A DNA stretch of 61,863 nt, counting the filler. It is 5 parts of 5 records of this genome, joined end to end, with 100 filler letters (N's around TTAATTAATTAA, not from the genome) between each part and the next. Parts side by side here need not be neighbours in the genome. Positions count along the whole stretch, not along the records: positions 1 to 18,781 come from SRR22947725_1362; 4 more parts are not named here. One strand, given 5' to 3'. A program made the position numbers and the translations under genes. Shown here piece by piece: positions 1-12,907 of this stretch (position 1 is its first letter; each line of letters opens with the position of its first letter). The notes under the pieces were generated by a model. That model did not search any database. It saw only the letters and a program-made list of their open reading frames with translations, and was not told where the DNA came from.

Positions 1-1
1 A

Positions 2-895
2 GACAGTGTTAAAAAAGGTGATATGATTGCTGAGACAGCAGGAATTTTTGGTATGTTTAAATCTTCAGTAGAATCTCCAGTAGATGGAACAATTGAATCT
101 ATATCTGAAAGTACAGGGCGTGTTATTGTTAGAGAAGCTCCTATACCAGTTGAAGTGGATGCATATGTTAGCGGTATTGTGGATGAAGTAATTGAAAAAG
201 AAGGAATTATTTTAAAATCTGATGCAGCTTTTATTCAAGGTATTTTTGGAATTGCAGGCGAAAAAAGAGGTGAATTAGTGTTAGTATCTAATAGTTCATC
301 TGATGAACTAACTTCTGATCAAATTACACAAGATATGGAAGGAAAAATTTTAATAGGCGGATCATTTCTTAGTCTAGATGCTTACAAAAAGGCAATGAGT
401 TGTAACGTAGCTGCAATTGTAGTAGGTGGTTTTAACTACTACGATTTAAAAGCAGTGCTTGGCTATGATTTAGGTGTTGCAATTACAGGAACAGAAAAGT
501 TACCTACAGCATTAATTGTTACTGAAGGGTATGGCTCTATTCCAATGAGTGATGCTACGTTTGATTTATTAAAGAATAACCATGGAAATCAAGCATCAGT
601 GAATGGTGCAACTCAGATTAGAGCAGGTGTAATACGCCCTGAAATTGTAATTCCTATAAATAGCGACTCTGATTCAGAAGATTCTCTATCAAAAGAACCG
701 GAAGGTATTCAAGAAGGAAGTACTGTTAGAGTGATTCGTTCACCTAACTTTGGAAAGATTGGAACGGTAAGTTCTTTGCCTTCAGAATTGAATAAAATGG
801 AATCAGAAACAATGGTAAGAGTTGCTGAAATTTCTATAGATGGGAAAAATACTCTAATACCAAGAGCTAACCTTGAAATGGTTGAATTACAATGA
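2..895 (+). CDS. Conserved hypothetical soluble protein, 5'-truncated: barrel-sandwich-hybrid-like N-part, central alpha/beta domain, C-terminal KOW-like domain
   Basis: Frame is open from position 2 (DSVKKGDMIAE). The VKKGD..AE..G......SPVDGTIESI pattern resembles biotinyl/lipoyl or RnfC/NqrA N-termini. C-terminal GSTVRVIRSPNFGKIGTV resembles a NusG-type KOW motif. Confidence 0.7.
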   Translation, partial: DSVKKGDMIAETAGIFGMFKSSVESPVDGTIESISESTGRVIVREAPIPVEVDAYVSGIVDEVIEKEGIILKSDAAFIQGIFGIAGEKRGELVLVSNSSSDELTSDQITQDMEGKILIGGSFLSLDAYKKAMSCNVAAIVVGGFNYYDLKAVLGYDLGVAITGTEKLPTALIVTEGYGSIPMSDATFDLLKNNHGNQASVNGATQIRAGVIRPEIVIPINSDSDSEDSLSKEPEGIQEGSTVRVIRSPNFGKIGTVSSLPSELNKMESETMVRVAEISIDGKNTLIPRANLEMVELQ

Positions 896-1164
896 GTTAT
901 ATACTTACAAACGACGATAAAGCATTTTTATCAAAGCTTGCAAATAAGATTGTAGAGTTAAAATTAATAACTCCGTCAATTTTTTTTCTTGAGATGGTAA
1001 AGCCCTTAAATTTTATTGGAAGTCAAACAATGGTGTTTTTTGGTCCAATAATTAGTGCATTTGTCAAAACAGATGGTTATTATAGGGCTGCTGAATTATT
1101 TGAACAGCATTCTAGTGTAGAATTTTTAATTTGTGAATTAGAACGATTAAGTAAGAATGAATAA
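892..1164 (+). CDS. Small conserved hypothetical protein (90 aa)
   Basis: ATGA overlap with the upstream gene and overlap with the downstream gene; motif PSIFFLEMVKPLNFIGSQ. Confidence 0.75.
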   Translation: MSYILTNDDKAFLSKLANKIVELKLITPSIFFLEMVKPLNFIGSQTMVFFGPIISAFVKTDGYYRAAELFEQHSSVEFLICELERLSKNE

Positions 1165-2035
1165 CAAGCAAATACAAACATACTCAATAGGATTCGTAGG
1201 TATTATTATTTTTACCTTCGCTTTAACTCAAATTCCAGAATCTTTTCATATTTTCCAGTCAGATAGGGCTGTAATGTTTGCTCTTTTACTTACTATTATA
1301 ATGGTAATGCTAAATGAAGTAAAAGATGCTAGAATTTCTGCTGATTCAATTTTTTTACGTACTATTCCAGGTCTAAAAGCAGTAGAGGAAGCAGTCGGGC
1401 GTTCTACTGAAATGGGACGACCTATTCTTTATGTTCCAGGTATCATGGATATGAACGAAGTTGAAACTGTTGCAGGTGTAATTATTTTAGGTCATGTAGC
1501 ACAAATGACCGCACAATACGAAACTAGTCTAGATGTTCCTGTTGCAAGATCTATTGTTATGCAAGCTGCTAGAGAATCTTGTAAAGAAGCTTATTTGACA
1601 CAAGGTCGACCAGAAATGTTTAATGAAGATATGGTTCATTATGTTACAGATGACCAATTTGCGTATGCTGCAGGGGTGAATGGTATTATGCAAAGAGATA
1701 AGCCGGCAGCCTGTATGTATATGGGTAAATTTTATGCAGAATCATTATTATTTGCAGAAACTGGTAATAGTATTGGTGCGATTCAGATTGCAGGTACTGC
1801 CTCTCAAGCACAAATTCCTTTCTTTGTAACTGCATGTGACTACACCTTAATGGGTGAAGAATATTTTGCTGCAAGTGCATACCTTTCAAGGAAGCCTGAA
1901 TTAATCGCAGGTGTTAAAACTCAAGATATGGTAAAATTAATGTTGATAAGCTTTATTGGGGTTGCATTATTATCACGCGCTTTATCAGATTTAGGATTAA
2001 CTAGTTTTAATCTTTTAACATGGTTGGGTTTATAA
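1157..2035 (+). CDS. DUF6754-like membrane-anchored protein
   Basis: Motifs EEAVGRSTEMGRP, QFAYAAGV, FYAESLLFAE and QIPFFVTACDYTLMGEE, which I recall as DUF6754; hydrophobic segments at both termini. Confidence 0.75.
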   Translation: MNNKQIQTYSIGFVGIIIFTFALTQIPESFHIFQSDRAVMFALLLTIIMVMLNEVKDARISADSIFLRTIPGLKAVEEAVGRSTEMGRPILYVPGIMDMNEVETVAGVIILGHVAQMTAQYETSLDVPVARSIVMQAARESCKEAYLTQGRPEMFNEDMVHYVTDDQFAYAAGVNGIMQRDKPAACMYMGKFYAESLLFAETGNSIGAIQIAGTASQAQIPFFVTACDYTLMGEEYFAASAYLSRKPELIAGVKTQDMVKLMLISFIGVALLSRALSDLGLTSFNLLTWLGL

Positions 2036-2036
2036 G

Positions 2037-2939
2037 ATGTTTTTAAAGAGATATATCCCAATTGGAATTGTTGCATTTTTTGGATCTTTAACTCTGTTTG
2101 GATGGTTTATTGATAATGAATCAGTTGAAGCATTTGTAAATGATGACGCTACACAATGGTATGATATTATTGCAAGTTTTGCAATTTTCCTTGGAGCGTT
2201 AAATCTTTTAAAATTACAATTTTTAAAAGTATTAAAAAGACAATCGGGCTGGCAGTACAGTGTAGTCGCTATAGCATCTTTCTTTTTTGCTTTTACAATT
2301 GGTTTCTTTATGAAGGGAGCTTTCTTTGTTGGAGAGGAAGTATACTTTACTCAAGGCGCAGCTGAACAAGCTATTTTAGCATCCGGATCGGTAGAAACTG
2401 TTAAAGCTGTAGAGTGGGGAGCACATATTTCTACAGAAGGCGGTCTGTTTAAGTGGATGTTTGATAATATTTTTACTCCATTGTCTGCAACAATGTTCGC
2501 ATTGTTAGCATTCTATGTTGCTTCAGCATCATATAGAGCTTTTAGAGCAAGAAATTTTGAGGCTACGTTATTATTGTTAGCTGGGATTATTATTATGTTA
2601 GGAAGAGTGCCTGTTGGAAGCTTAATTACCCCATGGATGGTAATGTATCTGTTAGTTTTTGTTGGAACAATCTTTATGGCAAACTATTTCAAAGATCGCA
2701 AAATTATTTTTGGTTCATTTGTTATAGGATTATTAGGTGTTACAGCTTTAGGTATAAGTATGGATTGGAATCCAACTGAGCCAGCAATATTCTTTTTACC
2801 ATCACTTCAAGAGTGGATTTATACAGTTCCAAATTTAGCTGGTGCAAGAGCAATTATGATTGGAATTGGTTTAGGGATTATTGTAACAAGCTTGCGTTAC
2901 ATTTTTGGTTTAGAAAAATCATACATAGGTGACCAATGA
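2037..2939 (+). CDS. Polytopic membrane protein of unknown function
   Basis: Many hydrophobic helices; motifs PLSATMFALLAFYVASASYRAFRARN and WIYTVPNLAGARAIMIG; 1-nt gap from the previous gene. Confidence 0.8.
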   Translation: MFLKRYIPIGIVAFFGSLTLFGWFIDNESVEAFVNDDATQWYDIIASFAIFLGALNLLKLQFLKVLKRQSGWQYSVVAIASFFFAFTIGFFMKGAFFVGEEVYFTQGAAEQAILASGSVETVKAVEWGAHISTEGGLFKWMFDNIFTPLSATMFALLAFYVASASYRAFRARNFEATLLLLAGIIIMLGRVPVGSLITPWMVMYLLVFVGTIFMANYFKDRKIIFGSFVIGLLGVTALGISMDWNPTEPAIFFLPSLQEWIYTVPNLAGARAIMIGIGLGIIVTSLRYIFGLEKSYIGDQ

Positions 2940-3778
2940 GGTATTTAGAAGACATGATATTAAAGCTCGGCTCTGTTGATAGAAGGTATATCTTTCTATT
3001 AATTGGTTTAGCAGTATTGATACCGCTTTTACGCCCTATTGATCTACCAATTAGAACAACACCAACTACTGAAAAAGTTTATAATGCAATTGCAGAAATA
3101 CCTGCTAATTCAAAAGTATTAATGTCATTTGATTATGGCCCAAGTACTAAGCCTGAAATTCATCCAATGACATTGGGTGTTATGAGACAGCTTTTACGCG
3201 AAGATCACCAGATATATATTACATGTTTATGGCCAGATGGGCTTTATATGGCGCTGGATGCATTAGAAGAGATTAATCAAGAATTTGAATTGGTAGAATA
3301 CGAAGATTACGTTTTATTGGGCTTTAGGCCAGGAAATGAAGCAATTGTTAAAGGTCTTGCTAGTGATTTACGCAAGGTATACACTGTAGATTATAAACAA
3401 ACAATGCTTGCAGATATTCCTATGATGGACGGTATAAACAATTTAAAAGATTTTCAATTTATTTTTACTGGCTCTGCTGGATATCCAGGGACTTTTGAAT
3501 GGGTTCAGTATGGTGGTGATCCAACAGGTGTGCCGCTATCGTCCGGAACAACATCTATTCAAGTAAATGAAGTAATGCCATATGTTCAGAGTGGGCAGGT
3601 AAGAGGAATACTTGCTGGAATGCCGGGGGCAGCGGAATATGAAAAATTAATTGGTACACCAGGTATTGCAATTCAAGGAATGGCAGCACAATCATTTGCT
3701 CATCTTGTAATTGTGTTGTTTATTGTCTTAGGTAATTTAGCCTATTTTATAACCGAGAGAAGAGAGAGGAAATACTAA
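2936..3778 (+). CDS. Membrane-anchored protein with a soluble alpha/beta domain, probable distant paralog of 1157-2035
   Basis: N-terminal TM after DRR, soluble core (SFDYGPS..PE..PM), C-terminal TM followed by RRERKY; ATGA overlap. Confidence 0.75.
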   Translation: MRYLEDMILKLGSVDRRYIFLLIGLAVLIPLLRPIDLPIRTTPTTEKVYNAIAEIPANSKVLMSFDYGPSTKPEIHPMTLGVMRQLLREDHQIYITCLWPDGLYMALDALEEINQEFELVEYEDYVLLGFRPGNEAIVKGLASDLRKVYTVDYKQTMLADIPMMDGINNLKDFQFIFTGSAGYPGTFEWVQYGGDPTGVPLSSGTTSIQVNEVMPYVQSGQVRGILAGMPGAAEYEKLIGTPGIAIQGMAAQSFAHLVIVLFIVLGNLAYFITERRERKY

Positions 3779-3779
3779 T

Positions 3780-4553
3780 ATGGCATTTTCTACAATTTTC
3801 GGTGCATGGATTGCAGCATTTTTAACATTAGGTATTTTATCTTACCTCTACAGAGATAATCCTTTTTATAAAATTGCAGAGCATGTTTTTGTTGGTGTGT
3901 CAGCAGCTTACTGGGCAGCTACTTTTTATTGGACACAGATTTATCCAAATTTATTTGGAAGATTATTTCCAAAAGATGGTCCTCTGTCATTTATTGCTGA
4001 AGTCGACTTCAACCATGATTTTAATATCCTTTATCTGTTCCCATTATTATTAGGGATTATGATGTTACTTAGTATCTTTAAGCAGTTTAATTGGATGGCA
4101 CGATGGGGTATTGCTTATACAGTAGGGATTGCAGCTGGGTTAAAAGCGTATGGATATTTGAGCTCTAATGTGTTAAGTCAAATTAGCGCAAGTGCAGTAG
4201 ATATTTTCGGTGGATCTTTGCCCATCTTTAGTATGTCAGGTGATAGTGTTTTTAATAATATTGTTATTTTAGTAGGTACAATTAGCGCGTTGATGTATTT
4301 TTATTTTTCAAGAGAACAAACAGGTTCTTATGGAAAATTTACTCGATTAGGTATTTATTTCTTAATGATTAGTTTTGGAGCATCATTTGGTTTTGCAGTC
4401 ATGGGACGCATTTCATTACTTATTGGACGTTTTAACGATTTAATTTTATTTTCTTCTCCCGACTATAACTATGGAACGTATTGGATGATGCTATTTATCG
4501 TGCTAATATTAGGTTTTTGGTCATTCCAAAATCCTGAAAAAAAGGAAGGTTAA
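3780..4553 (+). CDS. Polytopic membrane protein of unknown function
   Basis: Hydrophobic throughout; motifs SYLYRDNPFYKIAEHVFVG and FLMISFGASFG..VMGR; 1-nt gap. Confidence 0.8.
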   Translation: MAFSTIFGAWIAAFLTLGILSYLYRDNPFYKIAEHVFVGVSAAYWAATFYWTQIYPNLFGRLFPKDGPLSFIAEVDFNHDFNILYLFPLLLGIMMLLSIFKQFNWMARWGIAYTVGIAAGLKAYGYLSSNVLSQISASAVDIFGGSLPIFSMSGDSVFNNIVILVGTISALMYFYFSREQTGSYGKFTRLGIYFLMISFGASFGFAVMGRISLLIGRFNDLILFSSPDYNYGTYWMMLFIVLILGFWSFQNPEKKEG

Positions 4554-4556
4554 TAA

Positions 4557-5906
4557 ATGAATAAAGCGGACATTAGGAAAGTAATTTCCCAAAGCATTCT
4601 TGCAGATGGCATGGCTCCAATTATCGATCTGGAAAAATCTCATGGTTCTTGGTTGGTTGATAAGGTTAGCGGAAAAGAATATTTAGATTTATTTTCTATG
4701 TTTGCATCTCTTTCTGTTGGATATAATCATCCTTATGTATTGGAGCAATCAGAAAGATTGCGTATTGCTGCAATTAACAAACCTACAAATTCAGACGTCT
4801 ATTCTCAAGAAATGGCAGAATTCATGCATACTTTTAAGCGCGTTGCTCAGCCAGATTATTTACCACATACTTTTTTTATAGAAGGTGGTGGTTTGGCGGT
4901 AGAAAATGCTTTGAAAGTTGCATTTGATTGGAAGCGTAGAAAGAATTTAGCAAAAGGAAGTAGTGCTAAAGGAGAAAAAGTTATTCATTTTAAACAATGT
5001 TTCCATGGAAGAACAGGCTATACTATGTCCTTAACTGATTCTCCAGATAAGAGAAAAACAATGTACTTTCCAAAGTTTGATTGGCCTCGAGTTTCTAACC
5101 CTAAAATTACATTCCCTTTAAAAGATAATTTAGAGCATGTTCAAGAACTGGAACGACAATCATTGCATGAAATCAAGGAGATAATTGCTGCAAATCCAGA
5201 CAATATTGCTTCTATTATTTTAGAGCCTATCCAAGGTGAAGGTGGCGATAACCACTTTAGATGTGAATACATGCAAGCTTTAAGAGAAATTGCTGATGAG
5301 AATGATATTATGCTCATTTATGATGAAGTCCAAACAGGTATTGGTATCACAGGAAAAATGTGGGCACATCAACATTTTTCATCTGGAGGTTGTGAAACTG
5401 GATGTGGTTGTGCAGAGGGTTTATCGGCTAAGCCTGATATTATTTCATTCGGTAAAAAAACTCAAGTTTGTGGTATTGCTGCAAGTACTCGTGTAGATGA
5501 AGTTGAAGGAAATGTATTTCAAGAATCGAGCCGTATTAATTCTACTTGGGGCGGAAGTCTTGTCGATATGGTACGACTAACTATCTATTTAGAATTAATT
5601 GAAAGAGATAACTTGGTAGATCAAGCAGCTAAAAATGGATTATATCTATTAGATAGCATTCAAGGCCTTCAAAATCAATATCCTAGCCTTGTATCGAATG
5701 CAAGAGGAAAAGGCCTGTATTGTGCCTTTGATTTGCCTTCAAGTGATAAAAGAGACAAATTAGCAGAGCTTCTTATGGATGAAGGTTCTATTCTTCTAGG
5801 TTCTGGAAATTATTCAATTCGATTTAGACCACATTTAAATGTTACAACAGAAGATATTGATTTTGGAATAGATTGTTTTAAGCGCGCATTAAATAAGTTG
5901 GCATAA
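4557..5906 (+). CDS. lat: L-lysine 6-transaminase (class III PLP aminotransferase)
   Basis: NKPTNSD, GLAVENALKVAFDWK, FHGRTGYTMSLT, EPIQGEGGD, DEVQTG, FGKKTQVCG (PLP lysine) and SSRINSTWGG. Confidence 0.9.
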   Translation: MNKADIRKVISQSILADGMAPIIDLEKSHGSWLVDKVSGKEYLDLFSMFASLSVGYNHPYVLEQSERLRIAAINKPTNSDVYSQEMAEFMHTFKRVAQPDYLPHTFFIEGGGLAVENALKVAFDWKRRKNLAKGSSAKGEKVIHFKQCFHGRTGYTMSLTDSPDKRKTMYFPKFDWPRVSNPKITFPLKDNLEHVQELERQSLHEIKEIIAANPDNIASIILEPIQGEGGDNHFRCEYMQALREIADENDIMLIYDEVQTGIGITGKMWAHQHFSSGGCETGCGCAEGLSAKPDIISFGKKTQVCGIAASTRVDEVEGNVFQESSRINSTWGGSLVDMVRLTIYLELIERDNLVDQAAKNGLYLLDSIQGLQNQYPSLVSNARGKGLYCAFDLPSSDKRDKLAELLMDEGSILLGSGNYSIRFRPHLNVTTEDIDFGIDCFKRALNKLA

Positions 5907-12833: not shown

Positions 12834-12907
12834 GGGCGATTAGCTCAGTTGGTTAGAGCATCTGCTCGACATGTAGAGGGTCGGGAGTTCGAATCTCTCA
12901 TCGCCCA
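12834..12907 (+). tRNA. tRNA-Val(GAC), CCA not encoded
   Basis: Full cloverleaf: acceptor GGGCGAT/ATCGCCC, D stem GCTC/GAGC, anticodon stem TCTGC/GTAGA with loop TCGACAT, T loop TTCGAAT. Confidence 0.95.

Follow-up and report, generated by a model that had tools for sequence, protein, structure and literature searches.

The question raised by the locus described here is what a compact set of genes, several of them for membrane proteins and most without a named family, encodes. The genes lie at the start of the window, as the whole 61.9-kb stretch of DNA (61,863 nt, filler included) is called throughout, and occupy positions 2–4553 of its plus strand. An initial annotation, made from the sequence alone, had described them as a six-gene unit that may form an uncharacterised membrane complex around the protein DUF6754. 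Comparison with other genomes showed a widespread system without a characterised relative that consists of two modules, a trio (g0-g1-g2) and a membrane cassette (g3-g4-g5-g6). Each module is conserved, the two co-occur genome by genome, and one trio is found with one to several cassettes. The six-gene unit is in this way replaced by seven genes in two separable modules, often unlinked but co-occurring.

Two conserved modules that co-occur genome by genome

Within the window, the left edge cuts into g1 and leaves the last 297 of its 374 amino acids (2–895, 5' end open). This soluble protein is followed by g2 (892–1164), which encodes 90 amino acids and has no Pfam or NCBIfam family, and by g3 (1157–2035), a match to DUF6754 (PF20539, E 1.1e-107). 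The polytopic membrane subunit g4 (2037–2939), the bitopic g5 with its alpha/beta domain (2936–3778) and a second polytopic subunit of about 6–7 helices, g6 (3780–4553), complete the cassette. The list of open reading frames (ORFs), a hydropathy scan and two AlphaFold2 (AF2) models agree with what had been read from the letters, namely one soluble multi-domain protein, one protein of 90 residues, two membrane-anchored alpha/beta proteins and two polytopic ones, encoded consecutively with overlaps or 1-nt gaps (junctions from g1 to g6 of −4, −8, +1, −4 and +1 nt).

Such tight coupling had also been taken as a sign of a stoichiometric membrane machine, an argument that loses its force here. Close packing is a trait of the whole window, in which the gap is no larger than 1 nt for 19 of 49 same-strand neighbour pairs, gaps have a median of 3 nt and coding sequence makes up 94% of the DNA; the tight run goes on past g6 into unrelated genes, and packing alone proves little. 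Because it is equally tight window-wide, the case for an operon rests on synteny in other genomes and not on spacing. Scans of the window for promoters and terminators gave nothing above chance. Contigs from the RNA libraries of three studies cover all six genes at an identity of at least 95%, one of them spanning 1055–4729; they are compatible with expression and prove neither transcription nor a single transcript.

The upstream side was read from G001, a genome of 1.1 Mb, 96% complete and 99% identical to the window over positions 1–4553. Judging by the names on near-identical proteins, the window genome belongs to the Marinimicrobia (Fidelibacterota). Directly 5' of the full-length, 374-residue g1 in G001, with a 1-nt overlap, stands g0, which lies outside the window and encodes a GlmL/MutL-type protein of the actin fold. 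A gene of this type had been expected upstream, and its presence there makes the cluster one of seven genes, not six. Farther upstream G001 contains many ambiguous bases (X in translations) and several imperfect ORFs, while the region matching the window is clean.

Relatives of DUF6754 made up 7957 of the best 8000 candidates among 90%-identity clusters and fell into 1992 clusters at 50% identity (E ≤1e-3). At least 596 species genomes carry the domain, this being 596 of the 600 pattern matches listed, with one genome per species. For synteny, 80 loci from other species were collected and all of their ORFs were searched with the seven proteins. The loci came from Marinimicrobia, Zixibacteria, Eisenbacteria, WOR-3, Ignavibacteria, Planctomycetota, Fermentibacteria, Stahlbacteria, Aegiribacteria, Riflebacteria, Muiribacteriota, 'Deltaproteobacteria' and Lentisphaeria; Myxococcota and Poribacteria are further names among the DUF6754 relatives. 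The gene order of the cassette is fixed, with g3 followed by g4, g5 and g6 in 89 of 102 cases, the other 13 being cut by the end of the locus and exceptions numbering zero. The breadth of the sample upholds the earlier statement that the gene set recurs in diverse bacteria. Complete cassettes stand in tandem, two to three per locus, at 12 loci.

The trio behaves differently from the cassette. g1 was found in 43 of the 80 loci and never twice in one of them, with g0 adjacent on the same strand in 40 of the 43. The trio is arranged as g0-g1-g2-g3 in Marinimicrobia and as g2-g0-g1-g3 in Planctomycetota and Fermentibacteria, lies downstream of g6 in three loci and is divergent elsewhere. Among the 30 loci with ample flanks, 13 had no trio. 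Where a cassette had none within 10 kb, g1 was present once elsewhere in all five such genomes (5/5), which carry 6, 2, 5, 3 and 6 copies of g3.

Co-occurrence was followed in 151 genomes of the window's phylum, for which the lists of g3 and g1 were compared by hand. g3 is present in 92 and g1 in 97 of them; both occur in 91, neither in 53 and only one in 7, so that presence and absence agree in 144 of 151. The single-module genomes comprise one with g3 only (84% complete) and six with g1 only (65–87% complete), and in high-quality genomes each gene is found in 61 of 96. Whole families of Marinimicrobia have neither g3 nor g1. As neighbouring genomes are kin, the tally does not amount to a statistical test. 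Genomes of 0.8–1.1 Mb retain a single copy of the system, and the window genome represents this minimal single-copy version. From the pattern as a whole we infer that the two modules work together. A stoichiometric complex of g3–g6 with the trio would be in keeping with genetic evidence of three kinds, namely the constant gene order, the co-occurrence and the gene fusions.

Proteins of the trio and the cassette

In G001 g0 encodes 608 amino acids and matches PF13941 (MutL/GlmL) with an E value of 1.8e-123 and 413 bits against a gathering score of 27. Its ASKHA phosphate and adenosine motifs are invariant in 21 sequences, with a mean column identity of 61% across phyla. The family match and the nucleotide motifs are shared with GlmL/MutL, the accessory protein of B12-dependent glutamate mutase. 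g0 departs from that protein, and from the GlmL-related ornithine-degradation protein (NF040744), in staying under the NCBIfam equivalog cut-offs (219.2 bits against 475 for NF040745, 206 against 600 for NF040744) and in possessing about 140 additional C-terminal residues. It further differs from GlmL/MutL in pairing with g1, in co-occurring with a membrane cassette and in its scanned neighbours, none of which is a B12-dependent mutase: the four genes Pfam-scanned 5' of g0 in G001 encode CdsA, a DAGK/YegS-type kinase, a DPBB lytic transglycosylase and a DHODH-like protein; on the downstream side are found the cassette and the gene for an L-lysine 6-transaminase (LAT). Compared as a single sequence with all PDB sequences, g0 gave nothing meaningful.

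The second protein of the trio, g1, begins with a barrel-sandwich hybrid domain, continues with an alpha/beta region and ends in a KOW-like barrel; its mean column identity across phyla is 55%. g0 and g1 are naturally fused at L085 and also in two genomes, G116 (an open frame of 1011 amino acids) and G149 (993). RnfC_N is matched by residues 72–116 of full-length g1 from G001 with 25.9 bits, barely above the gathering score of 25.6 (E 1.1e-5), and NQRA_N is matched at E 0.006; the rest of g1 matches nothing solved when its profile is compared with PDB sequences. These matches, together with a loosely similar mix of subunits, are what could make the system a distant Rnf/Nqr-like, redox-driven ion pump with g1 as its RnfC/NqrA-like peripheral subunit. 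The reading is disfavoured and highly improbable. g1 contains none of the Fe-S, FMN and NADH domains of RnfC and NqrA, and the membrane subunits match no Rnf/Nqr family. A motif scan of g0–g6 found no CxxC, CxxCH, CxxCxxC or Walker A motif ([AG]xxxxGK[ST]) in any of the seven proteins, in agreement with the earlier statement that heme motifs, Fe-S cysteine clusters and Walker A were lacking, and g4 and g6 have no cysteine at all. The barrel-sandwich hybrid domain is, moreover, common to many unrelated proteins, and 22 homologues of g1 match Biotin_lipoyl (14) about as often as RnfC_N (13), with KOW in 7.

A separate feature of g1 is an invariant stretch at residues 278–291 in G001 (gene at L002:3852–4976), N-G-A-T-Q-I-R-A-G-V-x-R-x-E, which is loosely like a flavinylation motif. 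The flavinylation motif of NqrC and RnfG is S/T-G-A-T. A signal peptide is lacking in g1, and ApbE was not seen among the nearby genes.

The small protein g2 has a hydrophobic core motif, P-A-x-x-F-L-E-M-x-K-P-L ... V-F-F-x-P-I, in 21 aligned homologues. Its gene adjoins g3 in Marinimicrobia and at L035, L039 and L041, and adjoins g0 in Planctomycetota, Fermentibacteria and others; g2 is possibly an adaptor between trio and cassette. A complex prediction for g1, g2 and g3 scored 0.00 in a run without controls and counts neither way on binding.

Among the cassette proteins g3 alone belongs to a catalogued family. It is a full-length member of DUF6754, scoring 359.4 bits against a gathering score of 27 over model positions 4–244 of 257, and proteins of the family from other genomes are 39–54% identical to it. 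The Pfam entry carries no function and covers one of the seven proteins, g2, g4, g5 and g6 having no family; relatives of g3 are named 'DUF6754 domain-containing protein' or 'fibronectin type III domain-containing protein' at NCBI. The AF2 model of g3, with a predicted local distance difference test (pLDDT) score of 89, shows two N-terminal helices, a six-stranded Rossmann-like domain (residues 68–246) and a C-terminal helix. Of the alignment columns, 36 are invariant across 30 sequences; polar residues are frequent among them, with a Cys-Asp pair and several Glu and Gln.

These conserved, largely polar positions would suit a membrane-bound enzyme complex in which the Rossmann-like domain of g3, perhaps with that of g5, is catalytic, for example on a lipid-linked or carrier-linked substrate, and the GlmL-like ATPase serves as its chaperone. 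GlmL, EutA and DdrA have been proposed as activating or repair chaperones. The membership of g0 in the GlmL family, weak matches of g3 to eIF-2B/MtnA-type sugar-phosphate enzymes (E 0.078 in Pfam, 0.0077 in NCBIfam) and a CdsA gene upstream of g0 in 17 Marinimicrobia loci all point the same way. However, the fold of g3 leads to no particular enzyme family: the best Foldseek match has an E value of 4e-3, with none at E ≤0.001, and the VIA list is flat (Z up to 9.9), leaving generic Rossmann-like matches only. The lipid-gene neighbours are lineage-specific, and several cassettes per genome with one trio fit a single housekeeping enzyme poorly. An enzyme complex is judged quite unlikely.

Most homologues of g3 are longer than the window protein at the N-terminus. 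In 61 long ones PQQ-type beta-propellers were identified 18 times and fn3 domains four times, and the window g3 is a minimal form without the exported N-terminal domain of most homologues. A 1023-residue 'g3' at L060 was discarded as an over-extended ORF in GC-rich DNA, its N-terminal part being a separate gene in another frame. The N-terminus of g3 is presumably exported and the conserved Rossmann-like domain cytoplasmic. A variable ectodomain above an invariant cytoplasmic domain, with many cassettes to one trio, is also the layout of a signal-transducing receptor array, in which g3 would be the receptor, its sensor outside and its signalling domain inside, and the trio a shared signalling module. 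Such an array is very unlikely. Pfam and NCBIfam scans found no kinase, receiver, HAMP, GGDEF or DNA-binding domain in the seven proteins, each unit brings along two polytopic subunits and one with a periplasmic domain, and the window form has no sensor domain.

The fold of g5 is predicted with confidence (AF2 model, pLDDT 94) as a transmembrane helix, a Rossmann-like alpha/beta domain and a second transmembrane helix. Among 36 sequences 14 columns are invariant, and invariant Arg pairs occur before the first helix and after the last. With these Arg clusters at both protein ends, the alpha/beta domain is presumably periplasmic. The best fold match is the archaeal Rossmann-like protein MT0777 (PDB 1kjn, chain B; Z 10.9, root-mean-square deviation 3.6, 141 of 152 residues), which is also tied for the top match of g3 (Z 9.6, 133 residues). 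MT0777 differs in being soluble, without flanking membrane helices, is 8–11% identical and is itself uncharacterised. For g5 Foldseek gave nothing but GT-B/Rossmann matches, at a TM score of about 0.3.

The two polytopic subunits are conserved and equally isolated. g4 has a conserved six-helix core with the motifs TMFALLAFFVASASYRAFRA and AGQRAIMIGIALG in 35 aligned sequences, no Pfam match at 0.1 and no PDB relative by profile search. Homologues of g4 showed weak TMD0_ABC matches in 13 of 35 cases (best E 0.0034), which are probably compositional. In the alignment, g4 of Marinimicrobia stands apart from that of other phyla by an exported insert, specific to the lineage, and by two additional membrane helices. 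g6 is marked by KDNPFYK-AEH and FFSKEHKG ... FGASFGYTVMGRISLLIGR, with 28 invariant columns in 34 sequences; its 34 homologues share no recurring Pfam match, and there is no PDB relative. In Atlas look-ups g4 and g6 led to nothing beyond their own unnamed families. Profile searches of g3, g4, g5 and g6 against all PDB sequences gave nothing meaningful, so that no solved structure is related by sequence to the membrane proteins. The pairs g3/g5 and g4/g6 were considered as paralogues and dropped, as profile-profile comparison revealed no relation within either. The earlier view that the membrane proteins belong to no known complex is sustained by Pfam, NCBIfam and PDB profile searches alike. 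Taken together, the topologies suggest a system that crosses the inner membrane and exposes domains on either side.

A cobalamin-riboswitch operon and candidate functions

Rfam scans covered 60 non-Marinimicrobia loci, and two riboswitch families were looked up in genome samples of two phyla. A single riboswitch was found among the 60 loci, a cobalamin aptamer of 88.8 bits at L060, with the gene for a TonB-dependent receptor 29 nt after it. By the names on homologues the genome of L060 probably belongs to the Eisenbacteria. In 121 genomes sampled from that phylum the cobalamin riboswitch is present in 118, usually just once, and DUF6754 in 109; these tallies include one unpublished genome, G172, on which no claim depends. 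In four of the genomes (G157, G209, G246 and G260) a cobalamin riboswitch (85.8–107 bits), a TonB-dependent receptor, a secreted protein, an outer-membrane barrel and g3–g6 follow one another on one strand. The operons lie at L060:3837–12908, L098, L099 and L100. The secreted protein has about 400–500 amino acids and a FlgD-Ig-like end, and the barrel about 530–580, with PF13372 (alginate-export outer-membrane barrel) in 8 of its 40 homologues. Among 123 g3 genes those from the four operons group as one clade (support 0.998), and in G157 the riboswitch is the only one for cobalamin in 5.3 Mb. No terminator-like site was found between receptor and g3 in the two loci scanned. The combination of a cobalamin-riboswitch operon with a DUF6754 cassette is new here, and it provides a concrete, testable cargo for one cassette clade. 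Four further genomes, in which the cassette lies 17–22 kb past a cobalamin riboswitch, were rejected as co-operonic because opposite-strand genes intervene and the g3 genes belong to another clade.

The reading that we favour, held at somewhat less than even confidence, is that the system may be a modular, ATP-linked inner-membrane importer for nutrient uptake. In such an importer g4 and g6 would form the path through the inner membrane and g5 would offer a receiving domain in the periplasm. The cytoplasmic domain of g3 would serve the shared trio as a site of docking or processing, and within this trio the actin-fold ATPase g0, with g1 and g2, would supply the energy of ATP or act on the cargo, and different cassette paralogues would serve different cargos. 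Since the window g3 has no exported domain of any kind, the function must lie in the conserved core. A fuller version is put forward tentatively and is on balance doubtful: it holds that here, for the first time, a transport system would be driven by an actin-fold (ASKHA) ATPase, with interchangeable four-protein cassettes for different nutrients and one clade importing corrinoids under the control of a cobalamin riboswitch.

In layout the system resembles the energy-coupling factor (ECF)-type and ATP-binding cassette (ABC) importers, as one cytoplasmic ATPase set accompanies one to six membrane cassettes and one clade sits in a riboswitch-controlled uptake operon. It differs from them in using an actin-fold ATPase, with no P-loop or ABC domain (Pfam scans of the gene set gave no match to ABC_tran), and a four-protein membrane unit with domains on both faces; no relation by sequence or fold was found.

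Several observations weigh against an importer. By the family searches g4 and g6 are like no known transporter family, and the core, including the predicted periplasmic domain of g5, is near-invariant between paralogues while only the g3 ectodomain varies, which would be unusual for substrate-specific importers. The riboswitch link occurs in only 4 of 121 genomes of one phylum, and co-transcription there is suggested only by strand, spacing and the lack of terminator-like sites between the genes. FecCD-type permeases, possibly a classical B12 importer, are encoded elsewhere in all five genomes tested (5/5), and on this ground a replacement of BtuCD by the cassette was not accepted as established. 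A riboswitch with a TonB-dependent receptor is absent from the window and from the upstream region of G001, where the only match in the Rfam scan of the 61.9-kb window plus 16 kb of G001 was one tRNA gene (window 12834–12907). In neither phylum did a lysine riboswitch score above the cut-off (0 of 150 genomes for that of the window, 0 of 121 for the other), and none is listed in the scans of the 60 loci. Finally, among 140 flanking ORFs no family recurs across phyla, the most frequent being acyl-CoA dehydrogenase (ACAD) with seven members from one lineage.

In a rival reading nothing passes through the cassette itself. Hydrolysis of ATP by the trio could instead be converted, through g3–g6, into a conformational change of the periplasmic g5 and of the exported g3 domain, and the system would then be an energy or force transducer that powers or regulates an extracytoplasmic process such as outer-membrane transport or the action of surface enzymes. 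This is possible but unlikely. In its favour, the exported domain of g3 varies between fn3, PQQ-type propellers and none while the core stays almost the same, g5 has its domain between two transmembrane helices, one ATPase set goes with several cassettes, and the cassette is associated with a TonB-dependent receptor operon and with ExbB/TonB genes. Seven loci in four phyla show the latter association. In five of them, four from WOR-3 and one from Fermentibacteria, ExbB-like and TonB genes stand on the same strand as g6 and 3–5 kb downstream of it; in the other two, one from Ignavibacteria and one from Zixibacteria, ExbB-like genes come immediately after g0-g1. The logic could be that of mechanotransmission by FtsEX and MacB or of ExbBD-TonB, in which a periplasmic domain receives energy from the cytoplasm or the inner membrane; FtsEX, MacB and ExbBD-TonB rely on ABC ATPases or proton flow, and family searches found no similarity to FtsX, MacB or ExbB/D. 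Against a transducer, the presence of ExbB, ExbD and TonB beside some cassettes means that they are not replaced, and the window genome has kept the system with a g3 that has no exported domain.

Flanking genes and the meaning of the system

Downstream of g6, after 3 nt, the window continues with the gene for LAT (4557–5906; TIGR03251, E 8.6e-186). Among the loci compared, LAT occurs downstream of the cassette only in Marinimicrobia, where 13 loci have it and the distance ranges from a few nt to about 4 kb. It was rejected as part of the unit because of this restriction and the variable distance, and may be a passenger or a hint of amino-acid cargo. The next ORFs of the tight run were read from their translation, with no family search, and we take them to be rsmI, a probable thymidylate kinase gene (tmk) and an ORF for a C-terminal protease-like protein.

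In other genomes, a membrane protein of about 146 residues with weak DUF4118 and bacterial-PH matches is encoded before g2 in 11 loci (for example L083:5361–5801) as an eighth conserved gene. These loci belong to Eisenbacteria, Planctomycetota, Zixibacteria, Fermentibacteria and Ignavibacteria, with L039 (titled Neomarinimicrobiota) and L041; beside the G001 cluster no such gene was seen. Immediately 3' of g6 there is an ABC-type ATPase gene in seven Marinimicrobia loci (L018:13547–14473, L021, L022, L024, L029, L031 and L034) and one for a two-domain form in the Planctomycetaceae locus L050 (13443–15296), with none in the window. Three WOR-3 loci have a 16S rRNA gene about 6–7 kb upstream of the cassette on the opposite strand (L059:3635–4003, L066:2087–3654 and L076:1–387), with two acyl-CoA dehydrogenase paralogues in between. 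ACAD, lipid genes, an M28 peptidase and the ABC ATPase were each dismissed as conserved partners, being limited to one lineage or a few loci.

A full-text literature search, in which supplementary files were not covered, found no paper on this system, which is very widespread and present in 92 of 151 genomes of an abundant marine phylum, some of them of about 1 Mb. As an importer it would add a third architecture of primary active importer to the ABC and ECF types, widespread in uncultured bacteria of the FCB/PVC type. Should it prove to be either an importer or an energy transducer that an actin-fold ATPase drives, it would represent a new class of membrane machine and supply a piece missing from the metabolic models of Marinimicrobia, Zixibacteria, WOR-3, Eisenbacteria, Planctomycetota and others.

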